From assembly GCA_039810485.1 (NCBI GenBank), contig JBDHXA010000002.1:8597-72596 (forward strand): a stretch of 64,000 nt of DNA, written 5' to 3'. Numbering within the stretch: the first letter of the stretch is position 1; the number at the start of each line of letters is the position of its first letter. Below the pieces are notes generated by a model. The model worked only from the letters and a program-made list of their open reading frames with translations. It had not been told where the DNA came from and searched no databases. Position numbers and translations under genes: made by a program. This DNA is from Chlorobiota bacterium (GTDB lineage: Bacteria > Bacteroidota > Ignavibacteria > Kapaibacteriales > UBA961). Of this stretch, positions 2,905 through 52,836 are shown piece after piece.

Positions 2905-3008
2905 ATTTTAGATGATGAAAACTTAATATTTTGATGCAAAGATACGCTGTTGTTTGGGTCAAGGTGAATTTATGCTCAAAGATTTTACTTCATATAAAAC
3001 TCAAGTTT

Positions 3009-3548
3009 ATGCAATTTTCAGAATATTGGATTGAACGCTTAGGACTTATTCCGCATCCGGAGGGCGGCTATTATAAAGAGATGTATCGTTCGAATGGCAT
3101 AATACCAAAATCAGCTCTGCCAGAAAGTTTTTCCGGTTCGCGCAATTATGCCACGTCAATTTATTATTTGTTAACACAAAATGCTTTTTCTGCATTTCAT
3201 CGGATTCTGCAAGATGAAATTTGGCATTTCTATTACGGCTCGTCGATCATCTTGCACTGCATAACTCCTCAATCACACTACTATACTGAAATATTAGGTG
3301 TTAAAGATGATGCTTCTCCGATGGCAATAATTCCAGCCGGCACATTTTTCGCTGCTGAATCAACCGGTGGCAGACAAAATACACACGCTGATTTTTCTTT
3401 AGCAGGCTGCACAGTTGCGCCGGGATTTGATTTTCAGGACTTTGTGATGCCAACTGGTTTTGAACTAATTGAACTTTTTCCTCAGCATACAAGCATTATC
3501 AACCGCTTCACTCAATGCGCAAAGAATAAAAGCGATGGCAGCAAGTGA
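3009..3548 (+). CDS. Cupin-fold protein, DUF985 / cupin_5 family.
   Basis: HPEGGYYKE motif near the N-terminus is typical of DUF985 cupins. Internal ATG at 3009 is the likely start (MQFSEYWIERLGL...). Confidence 0.6.
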   Translation: MQFSEYWIERLGLIPHPEGGYYKEMYRSNGIIPKSALPESFSGSRNYATSIYYLLTQNAFSAFHRILQDEIWHFYYGSSIILHCITPQSHYYTEILGVKDDASPMAIIPAGTFFAAESTGGRQNTHADFSLAGCTVAPGFDFQDFVMPTGFELIELFPQHTSIINRFTQCAKNKSDGSK

Positions 3549-3675
3549 ATTTATTGTCAGATACTCATATTCACAATTTTATGATATTTCTGTACATACA
3601 GCGTAAATATTTCAAGATTATTTGTATTTTTGCATCGTTATATCATTTTTTATTTATAATATTTCAAATTACTCT

Positions 3676-5409
3676 ATGAGTGTTTTGGTTAATTCGAATT
3701 CGCGTGTATTGGTTCAGGGTATAACCGGTTCCGAAGGCACATTTCACACAAGCCAAATGTTGGAATACGGCACAAATGTAGTTGCCGGAGTTACTCCCGG
3801 TAAATCCGGTTTGCAATACGAAGGAAAAGGCGATGATAAGTTTAACCGTTCAGTTCCGGTTTTTAATACTGTAAGCGAAGCTGTTTCAGCAACTAGAGCG
3901 AATGTTTCAATAATATTTGTTCCTGCGCCTGTGGCTGCCGACGCTATTTTAGAGGCAATTACTGCAAAAATCCCTGTAATTATTTGTATTACAGAAGGAA
4001 TACCGGTAAAGGATATGATTGCCGTAAAAACTGCTCTAAGCCAATCTGAATCACGGCTAATAGGACCGAATTGCCCCGGAATAATTACGCCGGGCGAATG
4101 TAAAATAGGTATTATGCCGGGATTTATCCATGCAGTTGGTTCTATTGGTGTAGTTTCACGAAGCGGCACATTAACGTATGAAGCCGTAAAGCAATTGACT
4201 GATATTGGATTAGGTCAGTCAACATGCATAGGCATAGGCGGCGATCCAATTATCGGCACGCAATTTATTGATGCTATCAAACTATTCAATGCTGATCCTA
4301 AAACAAAAGCAATCGTGATGATTGGCGAAATTGGAGGCAGCGCTGAAGAAGAAGCAGCTGATTACATAAAAGCCAATGTAAGAAAACCAGTTATCGGTTT
4401 TATTGCAGGTAGAACAGCGCCTCCGGGCAGAAGAATGGGACATGCTGGAGCTATAATATCGGGTGGCAAAGGAACTGCCGCAGAAAAAGTAACAGCAATG
4501 CGCAAAGCCGGAATACACGTAGTTGACTCACCTGCAAATATTGGATTGACTGTCGCTCAAGTATTAAGTATTGACGGCAAAAATCGTGCGTCTTCAAATA
4601 TTGAACAACTAACAAATAGCACCTCAACAACATCAACCAAGAAACCGATTGGCCGCCCAAAGGGAACTGTAAAGAACAAATCTGTCCATCATAATTTTTC
4701 ACATTTAAACGACAGTATGGCATCATTCTATGATGAAACTCAAACCGAATTGCAAAATGCGGCTGAAGGCAAATTAAAACGCGGAAGACCAAAAGGTTCG
4801 CTCGGCAAAACTAAAAACAAAAAATCTGCAAAACCTTCTGCCGCATTCGATGAGAACGGCAACCCAATCGTAAAACAACGCGGAAGACCAAAAGGTTCGC
4901 TCGGCAAACATAAAAAAAATACAAAACCTGCTGCCGCATTCGACGATAACGGCAACCCAATCGTAAAACAACGCGGAAGACCAAAAGGTTCGCTCGGCAA
5001 ACATAAAAAAACTGCAAAACCTGCTGCCGCATTCGACGATAACGGCAACCCAATCGTAAAACAACGCGGAAGACCAAAAGGTTCGCTCGGCAAACATAAA
5101 AAAACTGCAAAACCTGCTATCGCATTCGACGATAACGGCAACCCAATCGTAAGACAACGCGGAAGACCCAAAGGTTCGCTCGGCAAACATAAAAAAACTG
5201 CAAAACCTATAATCGCTTTTGATGCTGCAGGCGAGCCAATCATTAGGCAGCGCGGAAGACCAAAAGGTTCGCTTGGCAAACAAAAAGATAATAAATCCAA
5301 GAAACAAAAAGCAGCCAAGCCTGAATCCGCCGAAACATTAGTAAAACAACGCGGAAGACCAAAAGGAGCGAAGAATAAACCGAAACGCAAGAATAATAAA
5401 AGAAGGTAA
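3676..5409 (+). CDS. sucD: Succinyl-CoA synthetase alpha subunit (SucD) fused in frame to a C-terminal tail of about 8 canonical AT-hook motifs (RGRPKGS). No sucC is adjacent.
   Basis: Residues 1 to about 300 match SucD (CoA-binding NAD(P) fold, GITGSEG, phospho-His loop [16 protein letters not shown]). This is followed by a low-complexity linker and repeated [30 protein letters not shown] units, then a KR-rich C-terminus. Likely start is the ATG at 3676 ([15 protein letters not shown]). Confidence 0.8.
4775..5310 (+). repeat. About 6 tandem copies of a 90-bp coding repeat (30-aa AT-hook unit). Copies 3 and 4 are identical at DNA level.
   Basis: Direct reading: the unit aacccaatcgtaaaacaacgcggaagaccaaaaggttcgctcggcaaacataaaaaaactgcaaaacctgctgccgcattcgacgataacggc recurs at about 4861, 4951, 5041 and 5131, with diverged copies at about 4775 and 5221. 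Confidence 0.85.
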
Positions 5410-5637
5410 ATTAAAATACCTGATTTAAAAACATAACACTTTGTTGATAAATATAATTTCTTGAATGTCAGCAATAACGAAATCCACGTATCTAATCCAT
5501 TGCTTACAATTTAATTATATCAGACGTTTATTCATAAGACATGAGCGTCTTTCAATGCGTTAATATTTCAAAGAATTATCAGCAATAAACGATAAGAAAA
5601 TAACACCATAATTTTATTTACTTTGGAAACGAACATT

Positions 5638-6069
5638 ATGATAAAAGAACGGACGCTTGCAATCATTAAACCTGATGCAACACGCAAAAATGTAGTAGGA
5701 GAAATTATTGCAGCCATAACGCAGGACGGCTTTACCGTCCTAGCTATGAAAATGACACGAATCAGCCGCGAACAAGCTTCTGAATTTTATGCTGTTCATC
5801 GCGACCGAGGTTTTTTTGGCGAACTTGTTGATTTTATGAGCAGCGGAGCCATCGTGCCCATAGCGCTCGAAAAAGAGAATGCTGTAGCTGACTATCGCTC
5901 TTTAATCGGCGCTACAGATCCGACAGAAGCTGCCGAAGGAACAATTCGTAAAAGATTTGCTTCCTCAAAAGGTGAGAATGCCGTCCATGGCTCAGATTCA
6001 GTAGAAAATGGGAACAAAGAAATATCATTTTTCTTTGCAGAAAGTGAAATTGTCGGAAACCGCTCGTAA
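5638..6069 (+). CDS. ndk: Nucleoside diphosphate kinase.
   Basis: Start [14 protein letters not shown], active-site region NAVHGSDS, about 143 aa. Classic NDK. ATG at 5638 is preferred over the upstream TTG. Confidence 0.9.
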
Positions 6070-6195: not shown

Positions 6196-6738
6196 ATGAA
6201 AGTATTAGAACATAGTGATACAAGAATTCTCGACTCCAATCCTTATTGGAATTATGCTCTCGACGAATACACTCTTCCAGATGGGTCATTTGCGCCTTAT
6301 TACTATGTTCAATCTCACGGCTCAGTTATCGTTATTCCAAAATTAGACAATGGATTGTACGTAATGGTCAGACAATTTCGGTATCTTAGCGGCAGAGTTA
6401 GCGTAGAGTTTCCAGGCGGAGGAAGAAAGGCAGGAAAAACTTCGATTGATGCCGCCAGAGAAGAATTGTTAGAGGAGGCAGGAATAACTGAATCTAATTT
6501 ATCGTTTATCGGAGTGTTTAGCCCTTGTGTTGGCATTACAGACGAAGAATGCGCAGTATTTTACGCGACGGTGATAACACAATCTGTTCCGCAGCCGGAA
6601 CGTTCAGAAGAATTTGAATTGCTCGCCATATCAGATCATGAAATTGATAATTTAATCATAAAAGGAGAATTATGGAACGGAATGAGTTTGGCCGCTTGGA
6701 CTCTGTTTCGATTACGTCAATCATCACTAAAATGCTGA
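6196..6738 (+). CDS. NUDIX hydrolase (ADP-ribose/NDP-sugar pyrophosphatase-like).
   Basis: Nudix box GGGRKAGKTSIDAAREELLEEAGI (GX5EX7REUXEEXGU). Confidence 0.8.
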   Translation: MKVLEHSDTRILDSNPYWNYALDEYTLPDGSFAPYYYVQSHGSVIVIPKLDNGLYVMVRQFRYLSGRVSVEFPGGGRKAGKTSIDAAREELLEEAGITESNLSFIGVFSPCVGITDEECAVFYATVITQSVPQPERSEEFELLAISDHEIDNLIIKGELWNGMSLAAWTLFRLRQSSLKC

Positions 6739-7721
6739 TTGTTGCATTTAGCTTCACTGCAATGACTTTTGCTTCAAAAGCGCAATATACGGCTCCAAGC
6801 ACAGGAAAGCCGCTGCCTAAAAAATATTCAATAAAAGTGGATTATCCATCACATGTAGCCAGCAGCTATGCTTTGACAGAAAAAACAATCGTCAAGCGCG
6901 ATTACCGCGATGATCAGCATAAAAATTATGAACGAGAGGTTACATACTATTTTACGATGGGAAAAGTTGGAGAAACCGACAATGGTTTAACAAAAATATT
7001 ATGCAATATTGATTCGCTTCGTTATACGTTTAAAGAAAACAATAAAACTTTGCATTATGATTCGCAAGAGCCACGAAATTCGAATATCAAGGGAGAATTT
7101 GCCGATCTCACCTATACTCAAGCTCCGCTCAATCATATGTTTGTCATGCTGTTAGACAATAAGAACACAATTGTTGATATAAATGGTAATAATGAAGATA
7201 ACGATATAGAATGGCTGCGAAAGTATATTTTAGTGGATGGCGCTGACGTGATGGACACAGCGCAAAAATTTCTATGGTTGGACGGCATTTCTCGTAATCG
7301 TCTGCAAACTCTCGTTGATTTGAATGGCGGTTTAATCAGAGAAAGAATGTTGGTTGGTGAGGATTCAACATGGTCGCAACCCTCGCTTGTTCGACTTGAC
7401 GGAATTGAATTTTCTGATACGCTCACTGCCAAAGTTGCCACCGTATCACGCGGAGTATATTCAGTGGAAACTATAGTGTCAGGACTAAAAGCTGATAGAG
7501 ATCGAGAACACCGAATGTTTGGCATACCAGCGCCGGCTTCGGTTGACTCAACAATTTCAGGAAGCGGCAAAACAAAGCTTAAGCTTAACAAAGAGGGCTC
7601 TATTCGAGCTTATGACGCTGATTATTCGGCAGTCATACAAGGACATTATCAACACGAAAAATTTGTTCAATCTATAAACACTTCAATACGATGCATCATT
7701 TTGAGTCAATTCGAGTGGTAA
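6732..7721 (+). CDS. Hypothetical secreted protein or lipoprotein, paralog of the next gene.
   Basis: Internal ATG at 6732 followed by signal peptide MLIVAFSFTAMTFASKAQ. Shares a C-terminal ISGSGKT motif and overall architecture with ORF 7691..8773. Confidence 0.5.
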   Translation: MLIVAFSFTAMTFASKAQYTAPSTGKPLPKKYSIKVDYPSHVASSYALTEKTIVKRDYRDDQHKNYEREVTYYFTMGKVGETDNGLTKILCNIDSLRYTFKENNKTLHYDSQEPRNSNIKGEFADLTYTQAPLNHMFVMLLDNKNTIVDINGNNEDNDIEWLRKYILVDGADVMDTAQKFLWLDGISRNRLQTLVDLNGGLIRERMLVGEDSTWSQPSLVRLDGIEFSDTLTAKVATVSRGVYSVETIVSGLKADRDREHRMFGIPAPASVDSTISGSGKTKLKLNKEGSIRAYDADYSAVIQGHYQHEKFVQSINTSIRCIILSQFEW

Positions 7722-8773
7722 AATTAGCCCAATTATCGTTTATTTGCTGTTTTTTAGCAGTAATTTGGAGCTGCGGCGATTCACAGCAGCAAACAATTGA
7801 AAAGCAACTGCCGGAGTCGAACGCAACACAAGTGCCTCATACTTCCGAACTTGCTTCAGCACAGCAGCTTAACGGTAATGAAGCGAAAATAACCTCCTTG
7901 CTTTATCGAGTGCAAGCAGGCGATGTATTCCGATATAAGTTTAGCCAAGATGACAAGTTAAATCAAGACGGAATGAATGCAGAAACAAGTCAGACGCTGT
8001 ATTATACAAAGAAAATTAAATCAATAAAGTCAGACGGCTCAATAGAAATGACTGTGCGGTACGATTCGATTCGCCTTAATAATAATTACCCTGATTTACG
8101 CGACTCAACTAAGCGCATCACAACGTCTTATAACTCATCGAACCCAAAAGACCGCGAAAACAAGGATTTTAATCAATACAATGGCATTCTTGGCGAAGAA
8201 ATCACAGCACTTGTTTCGAAAGACGGACATATTTCTGAAATAAGCGGACTCACTCCTCTCCTTTCAAAAATATTTGGAGATATGAAAGATTCACTCAATC
8301 CAAAGATGCGCGAGCAAGCATTGGAACAAATAAAAGTGCAGTTGTATCAGCGTCCATTGCAACAAGAATATCAAAATTTTCCTGATGGCGGCACAATAGA
8401 TTCTACAAATACTTGGCAGTTCAAAGAGCGATCTCCATTGTCAGGAATTTTTCTTGTAGATAATTCTATAACCTATCATCTCGATGCTGTAAAGCAAGTT
8501 GGCAGTCGAAAAACTGCTTTTATTTCCGCAAAGCTCGTTTCTTCTATTGACAATCCGGCGCAAAAGCAAGGCATAGTAGCTTTTAAACTTAATAAATCGG
8601 AGATTTCAGGCAGCGGCGAAACAATTCTAGACGTCGAAAAGGGATATACAATTCAAAAGAAAAATACAATCCGTACTTTTATAGACGCGACCATGAGCGA
8701 TGCTAAAACCAAACAGTCAAAGCGCGCTGTTCAATCGCTCGTATCCACCATGAAAATTGAGTTAATTAAGTGA
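7691..8773 (+). CDS. Hypothetical lipoprotein, paralog of the previous gene.
   Basis: N-terminal hydrophobic segment ending in a Cys (LAVIWSCGDS). C-terminal ISGSGET motif is shared with the upstream ORF. Confidence 0.5.
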   Translation: MHHFESIRVVKLAQLSFICCFLAVIWSCGDSQQQTIEKQLPESNATQVPHTSELASAQQLNGNEAKITSLLYRVQAGDVFRYKFSQDDKLNQDGMNAETSQTLYYTKKIKSIKSDGSIEMTVRYDSIRLNNNYPDLRDSTKRITTSYNSSNPKDRENKDFNQYNGILGEEITALVSKDGHISEISGLTPLLSKIFGDMKDSLNPKMREQALEQIKVQLYQRPLQQEYQNFPDGGTIDSTNTWQFKERSPLSGIFLVDNSITYHLDAVKQVGSRKTAFISAKLVSSIDNPAQKQGIVAFKLNKSEISGSGETILDVEKGYTIQKKNTIRTFIDATMSDAKTKQSKRAVQSLVSTMKIELIK

Positions 8774-52167: not shown

Positions 52168-52836
52168 TCAAAGGAACGACACATTCAGCTCCGTATAATC
52201 ATGCAACAATAACCGCGCATTGTCACCGGATGTTACGCTGCCGACTCCTGAAGGAGTGCCGGTAAAGATGCAGTCGCCTGCACGAAGCTCGAAAATTGAC
52301 GACAAATATGCGATAATTTGCGCTGTGGATCTTTCCATTTTTTTGGAGTCGCCATATTGACGCTTCTCGTCATTTAGAAATAAAGAGAATGTCAAATGCG
52401 GTTCTTTATCTCCATATTTTTCTATAGGTACAATACTAGAAATTGGCGCCGAATGTCTGAATCCTTTGGACACTGCCCATGGCTCGCCGCATTGCTTGGC
52501 GCGTTGCTGTGCGTCGCGCGCAGTCAGATCGAGGCCAACGCCATAACCAGCAACAACTTGAAAAGCATTTTCAGTAGCAATATCTTTGCAGTCACTGCCA
52601 ATGAGCACAACAAGTTCTGCCTCAAAATGCACTTCCGATGAAAATTTTGGAAGTTCTACGACGGCGCCGTTAGGCGAATAAGCCGATGGCGGCTTAATGA
52701 AAATAATTGGCTCGCTTGGCACAACCGCGCCCATTTCACTTGCGTGGTCGGCATAATTGCGCCCAGCGCAATACATTGTGCCGACCTGCATTGTTCGACC
52801 ATCGGTAAATACATAATTTCTATAATCGAGATTCAT
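52168..52836 (-). CDS. Fumarylacetoacetate-hydrolase (FAH) family protein, short single-domain type (oxaloacetate decarboxylase / acylpyruvase-like).
   Basis: FAH-domain pattern …GRNYADHASEMG…EAELVVLIG…GYGVGLDLTARD…. Confidence 0.75.
   Translation of the reverse strand: MNLDYRNYVFTDGRTMQVGTMYCAGRNYADHASEMGAVVPSEPIIFIKPPSAYSPNGAVVELPKFSSEVHFEAELVVLIGSDCKDIATENAFQVVAGYGVGLDLTARDAQQRAKQCGEPWAVSKGFRHSAPISSIVPIEKYGDKEPHLTFSLFLNDEKRQYGDSKKMERSTAQIIAYLSSIFELRAGDCIFTGTPSGVGSVTSGDNARLLLHDYTELNVSFL

Follow-up and report, generated by a model that had tools for sequence, protein, structure and literature searches.

A succinyl-CoA synthetase alpha subunit with a C-terminal AT-hook array in a Chlorobiota bacterium

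The window considered here is a stretch of 64,000 nucleotides of contig JBDHXA010000002.1 (forward strand, positions 8,597 to 72,596; assembly GCA_039810485.1, Chlorobiota bacterium, Kapaibacteriales), and all coordinates below are counted from its first letter. A complete open reading frame (ORF) of 577 aa lies on its plus strand at 3676..5409; it starts with an ATG (3676) and ends with a TAA stop codon (5407–5409). It encodes the succinyl-CoA synthetase (SCS; succinate--CoA ligase) alpha subunit, SucD, continued in frame into a long C-terminal tail that carries AT-hooks. SucD and tails of the AT-hook and histone-H1-like types are each already well known; a DNA-binding-type tail on a tricarboxylic acid (TCA) cycle enzyme is a new combination, and the conservation of a basic tail on this one enzyme throughout a clade is also new. 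For a TCA-cycle enzyme, neither this architecture nor its conservation across the clade would have been expected, and both are solidly established; the mechanism is inferred.

Enzyme domain and tail of the window protein

Residues 1–298 (3676..4569, plus strand) are a complete SucD with intact catalytic motifs, in which every testable feature of the family is present. The NCBIfam SucD equivalog NF004230 gives 460 bits on these residues (cutoff 336), TIGR01019 gives 452 bits (cutoff 353), and the Pfam matches are CoA_binding and Ligase_CoA. The functional motifs GITG15 (CoA-binding Rossmann fold), GPNCPG130, SRSGTL161, GEIGG217 (catalytic Glu) and GHAGA255 (phosphohistidine loop) are intact, and they are invariant across 40 aligned relatives. 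The AlphaFold2 (AF2) model of the domain superposes on the E. coli SCS alpha subunit (1jkj_A) with a TM score of 0.88, 62% identity and an E-value of 1.5e-35. All close homologues begin with MSVLVN, and the TTG at 3622, upstream of the ATG, is therefore not the start. The net charge of the domain is +2. One identical copy of the 577-aa protein (P0001) is present in the public protein collection, where the window protein and its relatives bear the plain name 'succinate--CoA ligase subunit alpha'.

The frame runs on for another 279 aa (residues 299–577), past the point where SucD ends in other phyla. The net charge of this tail is +53, and its composition includes 19% K, 10% G, 9% A and 7.5% P. 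Eight GRP cores are found in it, at residues 326, 370, 403, 434, 465, 496, 527 and 560. Residues 299–368 (4570..4779, plus strand) form a non-repetitive linker rich in S, T and N, in which AF2 predicts a helix at residues 347–363 with low confidence. The linker also holds the first hook (4636–4677, plus strand), which is degenerate (KKPIGRPKG), while RGRPKG is found in the other seven of the eight. The tandem array proper (4780..5349, plus strand) follows with six hook units of 33, 31, 31, 31, 31 and 33 aa, delimited by Tandem Repeats Finder and unit alignment, the RGRP codons of which begin at 4780, 4879, 4972, 5065, 5158 and 5251. Every unit is in frame and is built in the same order: hook, basic patch HKKTAKP, spacer. 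A terminal hook with a basic C-terminus (5350..5406, plus strand) closes the protein, and the hook-to-hook spacing is 99, 93, 93, 93, 93 and 99 nt.

Tandem Repeats Finder reports 5.4 copies of a 93-nt (31-aa) period at 4778–5286, matching at 91%. Differences among the three central units amount to only 2–5 nt and those of the outer units to 17–22 nt; from the closeness of the central units it follows that the middle of the array is where its recent growth took place. The hook-coding stretch of 30 nt is nearly invariant across the units, the spacers diverge, and the longest exact repeat in the array is 104 nt. AF2 assigns a predicted local distance difference test score (pLDDT) below 50 to most of residues 301–577, and the tail is predicted to be intrinsically disordered. 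The sole parts with a pLDDT of about 72–78 are five spacer motifs of the form F-D-[DEA]-[NA]-G-[NE]-P-I-[VI], such as F-D-D-N-G-N-P-I-V (4846–4872, 4939–4965, 5032–5058, 5125–5151 and 5218–5244; span 4846..5244, plus strand), for which a small turn or hairpin is predicted.

The hook sequence RGRPKGS is identical to the core of hook II of HMGA1, and no other ORF with an [RK]GRP[RK] motif occurs in the 64-kb window. Basic residues are located within 1–5 positions of each GRP core, and seven hooks follow the pattern [KR]-Q/L-R-G-R-P-K-G. Basic residues at this distance from the G-R-P core are the criterion of a canonical AT-hook (PMC4615771). The hooks of the window can accordingly be read, by sequence, as canonical HMGA-type AT-hooks, and the Pfam AT_hook model gives 18.3 bits on the tail against a gathering threshold of 17.4.

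Much of this anatomy had been outlined in a sequence-only reading of the same stretch. It took the first 300 or so residues for an ordinary, complete SucD, with which NF004230, Pfam, the motifs and the AF2 superposition agree. Its assignment of the hook core to the HMGA type is supported by the basic flanks, by eukaryotic multi-AT-hook proteins among the best matches of the tail, and by the AT_hook profile search that it had proposed, the outcome of which is positive and marginal. The tandem repeats and the tail length of about 280 residues stand; the units measure 31 aa and 93 nt instead of the 30 aa and 90 bp given there, near-identity applies to the three central units only, and the tail is not made of repeat units throughout, the linker being non-repetitive.

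Several other readings of the array were considered and rejected. A stand-alone AT-hook protein could be imagined to start at Met346 (4717), and the only promoter-like match overlaps this ATG rather than preceding it; the tails of the sister lineages have no equivalent Met. Minus-strand ORFs at 4740–5474, 4774–5307 and 4811–5110 are mirror products of the repeat and not genes, and the minus-strand terminator-like matches in each unit (a weak hairpin and a T-run) are by-products of the repeat sequence. NCBIfam matches of the tail to archaeal uL14 and to PlpA are far below the cutoffs and represent coincidences of composition and motif. A PDB sequence search with the tail returned only a spurious repeat-protein match (E 0.05).

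Basic SucD tails in sister lineages, relatives and other phyla

The AT-hook fusion occurs, within the same cupin-sucD-ndk-NUDIX synteny, in two sister lineages represented by three further independent assemblies (ENA ERZ27309507, NCBI GCA_013328915.1 and JGI 3300056789; loci L001, L082 and L083). The gene order shared by these loci is Cupin_5, SucD, NDK, NUDIX, an unknown gene and DUF6263. The tail units of P0003/P0122 are about 22 aa long, FKVKPATDESAPKRRQGRPKGS, and those of P0005/P0123 are 56 aa long with two hooks each; the sister DNA repeats are 66 nt in 6.8 copies and 168 nt in 4.8 copies, the latter with 98% matches. The array periods of 93, 66 and 168 nt are all multiples of 3, and all keep GRP with basic flanks. 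Retention of frame and GRP by three arrays with different units argues that the hook motif is selected. Since sister lineages in three other assemblies have the same architecture and synteny, the fusion is real and not an artefact of assembly; the sequence-only reading had held that a fusion seen in this assembly only would speak against it.

The number of hooks differs among close relatives. L001 and L083 have flanks that are 99.85% identical, and 333 nt of 66-nt repeats, inserted or missing in frame, set their tails apart, with 3 versus 8 hooks; P0005 and P0123 have 4 versus 10; and the lengths within 90%-identity clusters are 426 versus 537 aa and 457 versus 625 aa. That copy number might be variable had also been foreseen. 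These differences could represent either true population polymorphism or repeat collapse in short-read assembly. When other contigs were searched for the exact sequence of the window protein, no second copy was obtained, and a search of the JGI metagenome collection by the unique linker and by a 30-nt repeat-core pattern gave no relatives. Support for the junction thus comes from the sister lineages, because the exact species is represented by one contig only. The count of eight hooks is provisional, because the longest exact repeat spans 104 nt, and the repeat copy numbers of such proteins in short-read metagenome-assembled genomes (MAGs) are to be treated with caution.

A homology search yielded 120 SucDs with 75–87% identity in the enzyme domain, and tail statistics were obtained on the 113 that are colinear. 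The MAGs from which the 120 homologues derive are, with few exceptions, labelled Ignavibacteria, Kapabacteria or 'Bacteroidota bacterium', and nearly all of the proteins exceed a plain SucD in length. C-terminal extensions, which the sequence-only reading had suggested seeking among SucD homologues, are present in all 113 colinear ones, with lengths of 19–279 aa (median 36) and a net positive charge in 112 (median +10). The tail sequences do not align. Outside the AT-hook lineages they are composed of 26% K, 22% A, 13% T and 9% P, that is, they are histone-H1-like. Tail composition tracks genome GC content, being K-rich at 33–34% and A/P-rich at 51–66%, and is basic throughout.

A taxonomically mixed set of SucD loci from GTDB species genomes was used as a control. 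It includes ten loci labelled Ignavibacteria, Kapabacteria or Chlorobiota with basic tails of 27–127 aa and one Chlorobiales locus (L009) without a tail. Among the SucDs of other phyla, 66 of 68 end within 0–16 aa. The two exceptions are L042 (4001–5150 of that locus, a Steroidobacter MAG) with a tail of 92 aa and L067 (2752 to the end, a Proteobacteria MAG) with at least 32 aa, where the contig ends. Both tails are K/A-rich, in both loci sucC still adjoins sucD upstream, and they are independent, convergent gains. Across 196 ORFs of at least 120 aa in 164 kb of DNA from the clade, SucD is almost the only protein with a strongly basic terminus.

The comparison indicates that the presence and the positive charge of the tail are conserved and its sequence is not, that the trait is specific to SucD, and that the tail is probably under selection. 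The window protein represents the extreme form of this clade-wide basic tail and not a one-off fusion. A neighbour-joining tree of enzyme domains unites the window protein with P0003/P0122 and P0005/P0123 in a single clade, and the lineages around this clade have long K/A/P/T tails; the single-hook tail of P0083 arose separately. AT-hook-like RGRK or RGPKPG sequences are also present in the K/A/P-type tails of P0020, P0022, P0098, P0107, P0110 and P0072, for example VKRGRKPKA and KKRGPKPGSKRRK, and these tails may be intermediates between H1-like and canonical AT-hook tails.

Neighbouring genes

Upstream of sucD, a Cupin_5 (DUF985) gene (2931..3548, plus strand; Pfam Cupin_5, 152 bits) is a conserved neighbour in the AT-hook lineages, as the synteny of L001, L082 and L083 indicates. 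Downstream lies ndk, coding for nucleoside diphosphate kinase (5623..6069, plus strand; Pfam NDK, 178 bits), the start of which is probably the conserved Met at 5638. Both neighbours had been named in the sequence-only reading and are confirmed by Pfam. A promoter and terminator scan found no plus-strand terminator-like site between sucD and ndk. Within the clade, ndk is directly downstream of sucD, on the same strand, in L001–L004, L007, L008 and L010, and the same holds for L011, L019, L024, L028, L035, L044, L050, L055 and L069. Since the adjacency is also seen in phyla unrelated to the clade (Binatia, delta-proteobacterial and other MAGs), the SCS alpha subunit and Ndk may be functionally coupled in many bacteria.

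In nearly all of the other phyla sampled, sucD comes directly after sucC, the gene for the beta subunit. As had been noted from the sequence, sucC is not adjacent here: none is present in the 64-kb window or in any clade locus (L001–L012), and since it is unlinked in all of them, the absence of this neighbour is a trait of the clade. The window has 60.6% A+T, close to the earlier estimate of about 60%, and A/T runs of 6 bases or longer occur in it about 24 times per kb.

Some further features of the window can be mentioned. Two overlapping plus-strand ORFs downstream of the NUDIX gene, 6672–7721 (without a Pfam match) and 7691–8773 (DUF6263), are in the same order in L001, L082 and L083. An intergenic 50-bp tandem repeat (48832–49010, 3.6 copies, 94% matches) is situated directly upstream of a minus-strand gene (46646–48814) for a Porphyromonas-type peptidyl-arginine deiminase with a type IX secretion system (T9SS) sorting domain, and the next gene after the repeat (49278–52184, minus strand) codes for a subtilase with a T9SS tail. 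Such T9SS-sorted proteins fit an organism of the Bacteroidota or the Fibrobacteres–Chlorobi–Bacteroidetes group. Over the whole window, nothing was obtained from Rfam at gathering thresholds or from a tRNA scan.

Possible role of the tail and comparison with known systems

Comparative evidence and analogy suggest that the tail attaches the enzyme to the nucleoid. It would most probably be a polyanion-binding tether with nucleoid DNA as its target. That the ligand is DNA can, on balance, be considered probable, because the hooks are canonical, the proteins with similar tails act on DNA, and CarD and AlgP/PhaF provide precedents. The proposed course of events is as follows. The C-terminus of a functional SucD would have been extended into a disordered, polycationic, nucleic-acid-binding tail; in the lineage of the window, canonical AT-hooks would have replaced the H1-like K/A/T/P tail; and in-frame tandem duplication has then multiplied the hooks, to eight here. 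The hooks would insert in the minor groove of A/T tracts, and eight weak sites on a flexible chain would provide an avid yet dynamic attachment. The SCS alpha subunit would thus ride on the nucleoid together with the unlinked beta subunit and possibly with the co-encoded Ndk. As to the physiological purpose, we infer that the benefit could be local generation of nucleoside triphosphates (NTPs) and deoxynucleoside triphosphates by substrate-level phosphorylation through SCS and then Ndk, control of succinyl-CoA near chromatin, or both.

Several observations weigh against this reading. The Pfam AT_hook score is only just above the threshold, and no single hook passes alone. The exact species is known from a single contig, so that the count of eight hooks rests on one assembly. 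The youngest repeat copies differ by nonsynonymous changes only, and purifying selection on the spacers therefore cannot be claimed. The link between AT-hooks and an AT-rich genome, which the sequence-only reading had drawn from the roughly 60% AT of the DNA, is weak, because the sister arrays lie in DNA of 45% and 54% GC. Finally, polycationic tails are promiscuous, and canonical as well as extended AT-hooks can bind RNA (PMC4615771).

Such promiscuity and RNA binding favour binding of another polyanion (RNA or ribosomes, polyphosphate granules, acidic membranes), by which SCS would be concentrated there; this is unlikely, and it is the alternative that survives best. Most tails of the clade are generic K/A/T/P polycations, and the similar tail of AlgP is also found on polyphosphate granules, Ndk being linked to polyphosphate and to nucleotide pools (PMC9239181). 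Extended AT-hooks bind RNA about 10 times better than DNA, some canonical hooks bind RNA too (PMC4615771), and the hooks of the window with their flanking K patches loosely fit the extended pattern. However, basic residues directly adjoin the GRP core in these hooks, which is the canonical DNA-type arrangement, and the same type of array is carried by transposases, Ros/MucR and TrbI, all of which act on DNA. AlgP and PhaF, for their part, are believed to link granules with DNA (PMC9239181), and PMC2919716 describes the H1-like and AT-hook tails of CarD as equivalent DNA binders.

The tail could alternatively have a role intrinsic to the enzyme, in assembly, solubility or regulation, for example by drawing in SucC, which is unlinked and probably acidic, or Ndk, or as a sink for lysine succinylation; we consider this improbable. 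It would agree with sucC being unlinked in all clade loci and linked in almost all other phyla, with ndk as the conserved downstream neighbour, and with a lysine-rich tail on an enzyme that handles succinyl-CoA and succinyl-phosphate; in yeast, loss of the SCS alpha subunit raises protein succinylation about threefold (PMC8477199). Yet Chlorobiales L009 has an unlinked sucC and no tail, and Steroidobacter L042 has a linked sucC and a 92-aa tail. A specific interface would not survive total sequence turnover in tails of 19 to 327 aa, and the preference for the minor-groove-specific RGRP motif would be left without explanation.

Slightly less probable still is a functionless low-complexity extension, generated by replication slippage and persisting only because the C-terminus is permissive. 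The tails do vary widely in sequence, length and copy number, even where the flanks are 99.85% identical, and the central repeats, 2–5 nt apart, are very recent, with differences that are all nonsynonymous. A functionless extension is difficult to reconcile with the retention of the tail by 113 of 113 homologues, whose SucD domains diverge by about 25%, and with its net positive charge in 112 of the 113, in genomes of 33% to 66% GC. The tail is, moreover, absent from 66 of 68 SucDs outside the clade (the two exceptions being convergent gains) and specific to SucD among the neighbouring genes, and reading frame and GRP hook are both preserved in each of three independent expansions. An artefact of assembly or annotation would be a chimeric join, a stop or frameshift missed between SucD and a separate AT-hook gene, or a repeat that was collapsed or expanded. 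The single contig and the failure to find linker and repeat core in the JGI metagenome collection could point to it, and the exact 104-nt matches in the 93-nt repeats could mean a wrong copy number in a short-read assembly. For the fusion, this alternative is effectively refuted by three other independent assemblies that share the fused architecture and the synteny, by all 113 relatives reading through the stop position of other SucDs and by the distinguishing substitutions of the repeat units, so that copy number alone stays in question.

Tethering of SCS to the nucleoid by the tail, if real, would provide clear genetic evidence for spatial ordering of bacterial central metabolism with respect to the chromosome. 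The tail is modular, natural alleles with 3, 4, 8 and 10 hooks are available, and the K/A/P and AT-hook versions are built-in swaps, which makes this an easily tested system. A further-reaching scheme, to which little likelihood can be given, is an NTP-generating module of SCS and co-transcribed Ndk stationed on the chromosome; the tail being rich in lysine and borne by an enzyme that both makes and consumes succinyl-CoA and succinyl-phosphate, its succinylation would flip charges and release the enzyme, and nucleoid occupancy would thereby report TCA flux. If so, SucD would be the first core TCA enzyme with a dedicated, evolvable DNA-binding module, the valency of which is tuned by expansion and contraction of repeats.

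A full-text literature search found no paper that joins AT-hooks or lysine-rich extensions with succinyl-CoA synthetase or another TCA enzyme, and an HMMER search of 1.84 billion representatives returned only 63 proteins that resemble the window tail. Its eukaryotic matches are multi-AT-hook chromatin proteins (fish 'chromosomal protein D1-like' and ORC4), the fish D1-like proteins being among the best external ones. The bacterial matches include DDE_Tnp_1 transposases (P0153, P0157, P0197), with tandem hook arrays that are notably C-terminal, a Ros/MucR protein (P0143), a TrbI protein (P0156) and DUF4282 membrane proteins (P0140, P0142). Most bacterial carriers of similar arrays act on DNA. 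In P0153, P0157, P0197, P0143, P0140 and P0142 both the hook sequence and the tandem layout are near those of the window; P0140 has the spacer DPVTGEPVK before its hooks, and the pattern D-x-x-G-x-P-[IV]-K is shared with the window units. These proteins differ in having other N-terminal domains, mostly DNA-related, and the likeness seen lies in the repeats.

HMGA1/2 and the satellite-binding multi-AT-hook proteins Drosophila D1 and fish D1-like carry many hooks on a disordered chain, as the window tail does. In contrast to it, they are chromatin proteins that stand alone, and the tail of HMGA is acidic. Membership of the HMGA family was rejected: the hooks follow an enzyme of 298 aa, and the tail, with a basic C-terminus, carries a net charge of +53, unlike a small stand-alone protein with three hooks and an acidic C-terminal tail. 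There is no evidence of shared ancestry with the eukaryotic hook proteins, and the bacterial arrays look like local tandem amplifications.

The closest parallel in concept is CarD of myxobacteria. PMC2919716, citing Garcia-Heras 2009, describes its C-terminal domain as HMGA-type in Myxococcus and H1-like in Anaeromyxobacter, both being DNA binders that are interchangeable without loss of function. CarD of M. xanthus and Anaeromyxobacter resembles the SucD clade in combining a folded N-terminal domain with a tail that alternates between AT-hook and K/A/P-rich H1-like forms. CarD is, however, a transcription factor with a CarD_TRCF (PF02559) N-terminus, four hooks and an adjacent acidic region, whereas the window protein has a TCA-cycle enzyme at its N-terminus, eight hooks in near-identical repeats, a basic C-terminus and no acidic region. 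Identity with CarD was rejected, as CarD_TRCF is absent and Pfam gives only the CoA-binding and CoA-ligase domains and AT_hook.

The KPAA-repeat tails of AlgP and PhaF and the lysine-repeat tails of mycobacterial HupB, Ku and TopA are likewise disordered, K/A/P-rich and DNA-binding, with variable copy number, and most SucD tails of the clade are of the AlgP/PhaF/HupB type. In AlgP and PhaF, these H1-like KPAA tails bind to DNA, and polyphosphate and polyhydroxyalkanoate granules are presumably tethered to the nucleoid in this way (PMC9239181). The carriers of these tails are nucleoid, granule or DNA-transaction proteins, unlike the TCA enzyme SucD. For the window tail itself the KPAA-type class was rejected: it has 31-aa units with AT-hooks and no short-period KPAA or PAKKA repeats.

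In mitochondria, SCS is coupled to nucleoside diphosphate kinase (NDPK) and to the upkeep of the organellar genome; in the clade, sucD and ndk are neighbours and SucD bears a tail of the DNA-binding type. We know of no dedicated DNA-binding module on mitochondrial SCS, the association there being indirect. The yeast SCS alpha subunit (Lsc1) may be a protein of the mitochondrial nucleoid. Complexes of SCS with NDPK and depletion of mitochondrial DNA upon loss of SCS have been described (PMC3917248), and the TCA enzymes aconitase and α-ketoglutarate dehydrogenase reside in mitochondrial nucleoids (PMC3917248, PMC8477199). If SucD is tethered to the nucleoid as proposed, this would bear on the question of why SCS deficiency depletes mitochondrial DNA, and stationing of SCS together with Ndk, should it occur, would be the free-living bacterial counterpart of the mitochondrial link between SCS, NDPK and mitochondrial DNA.

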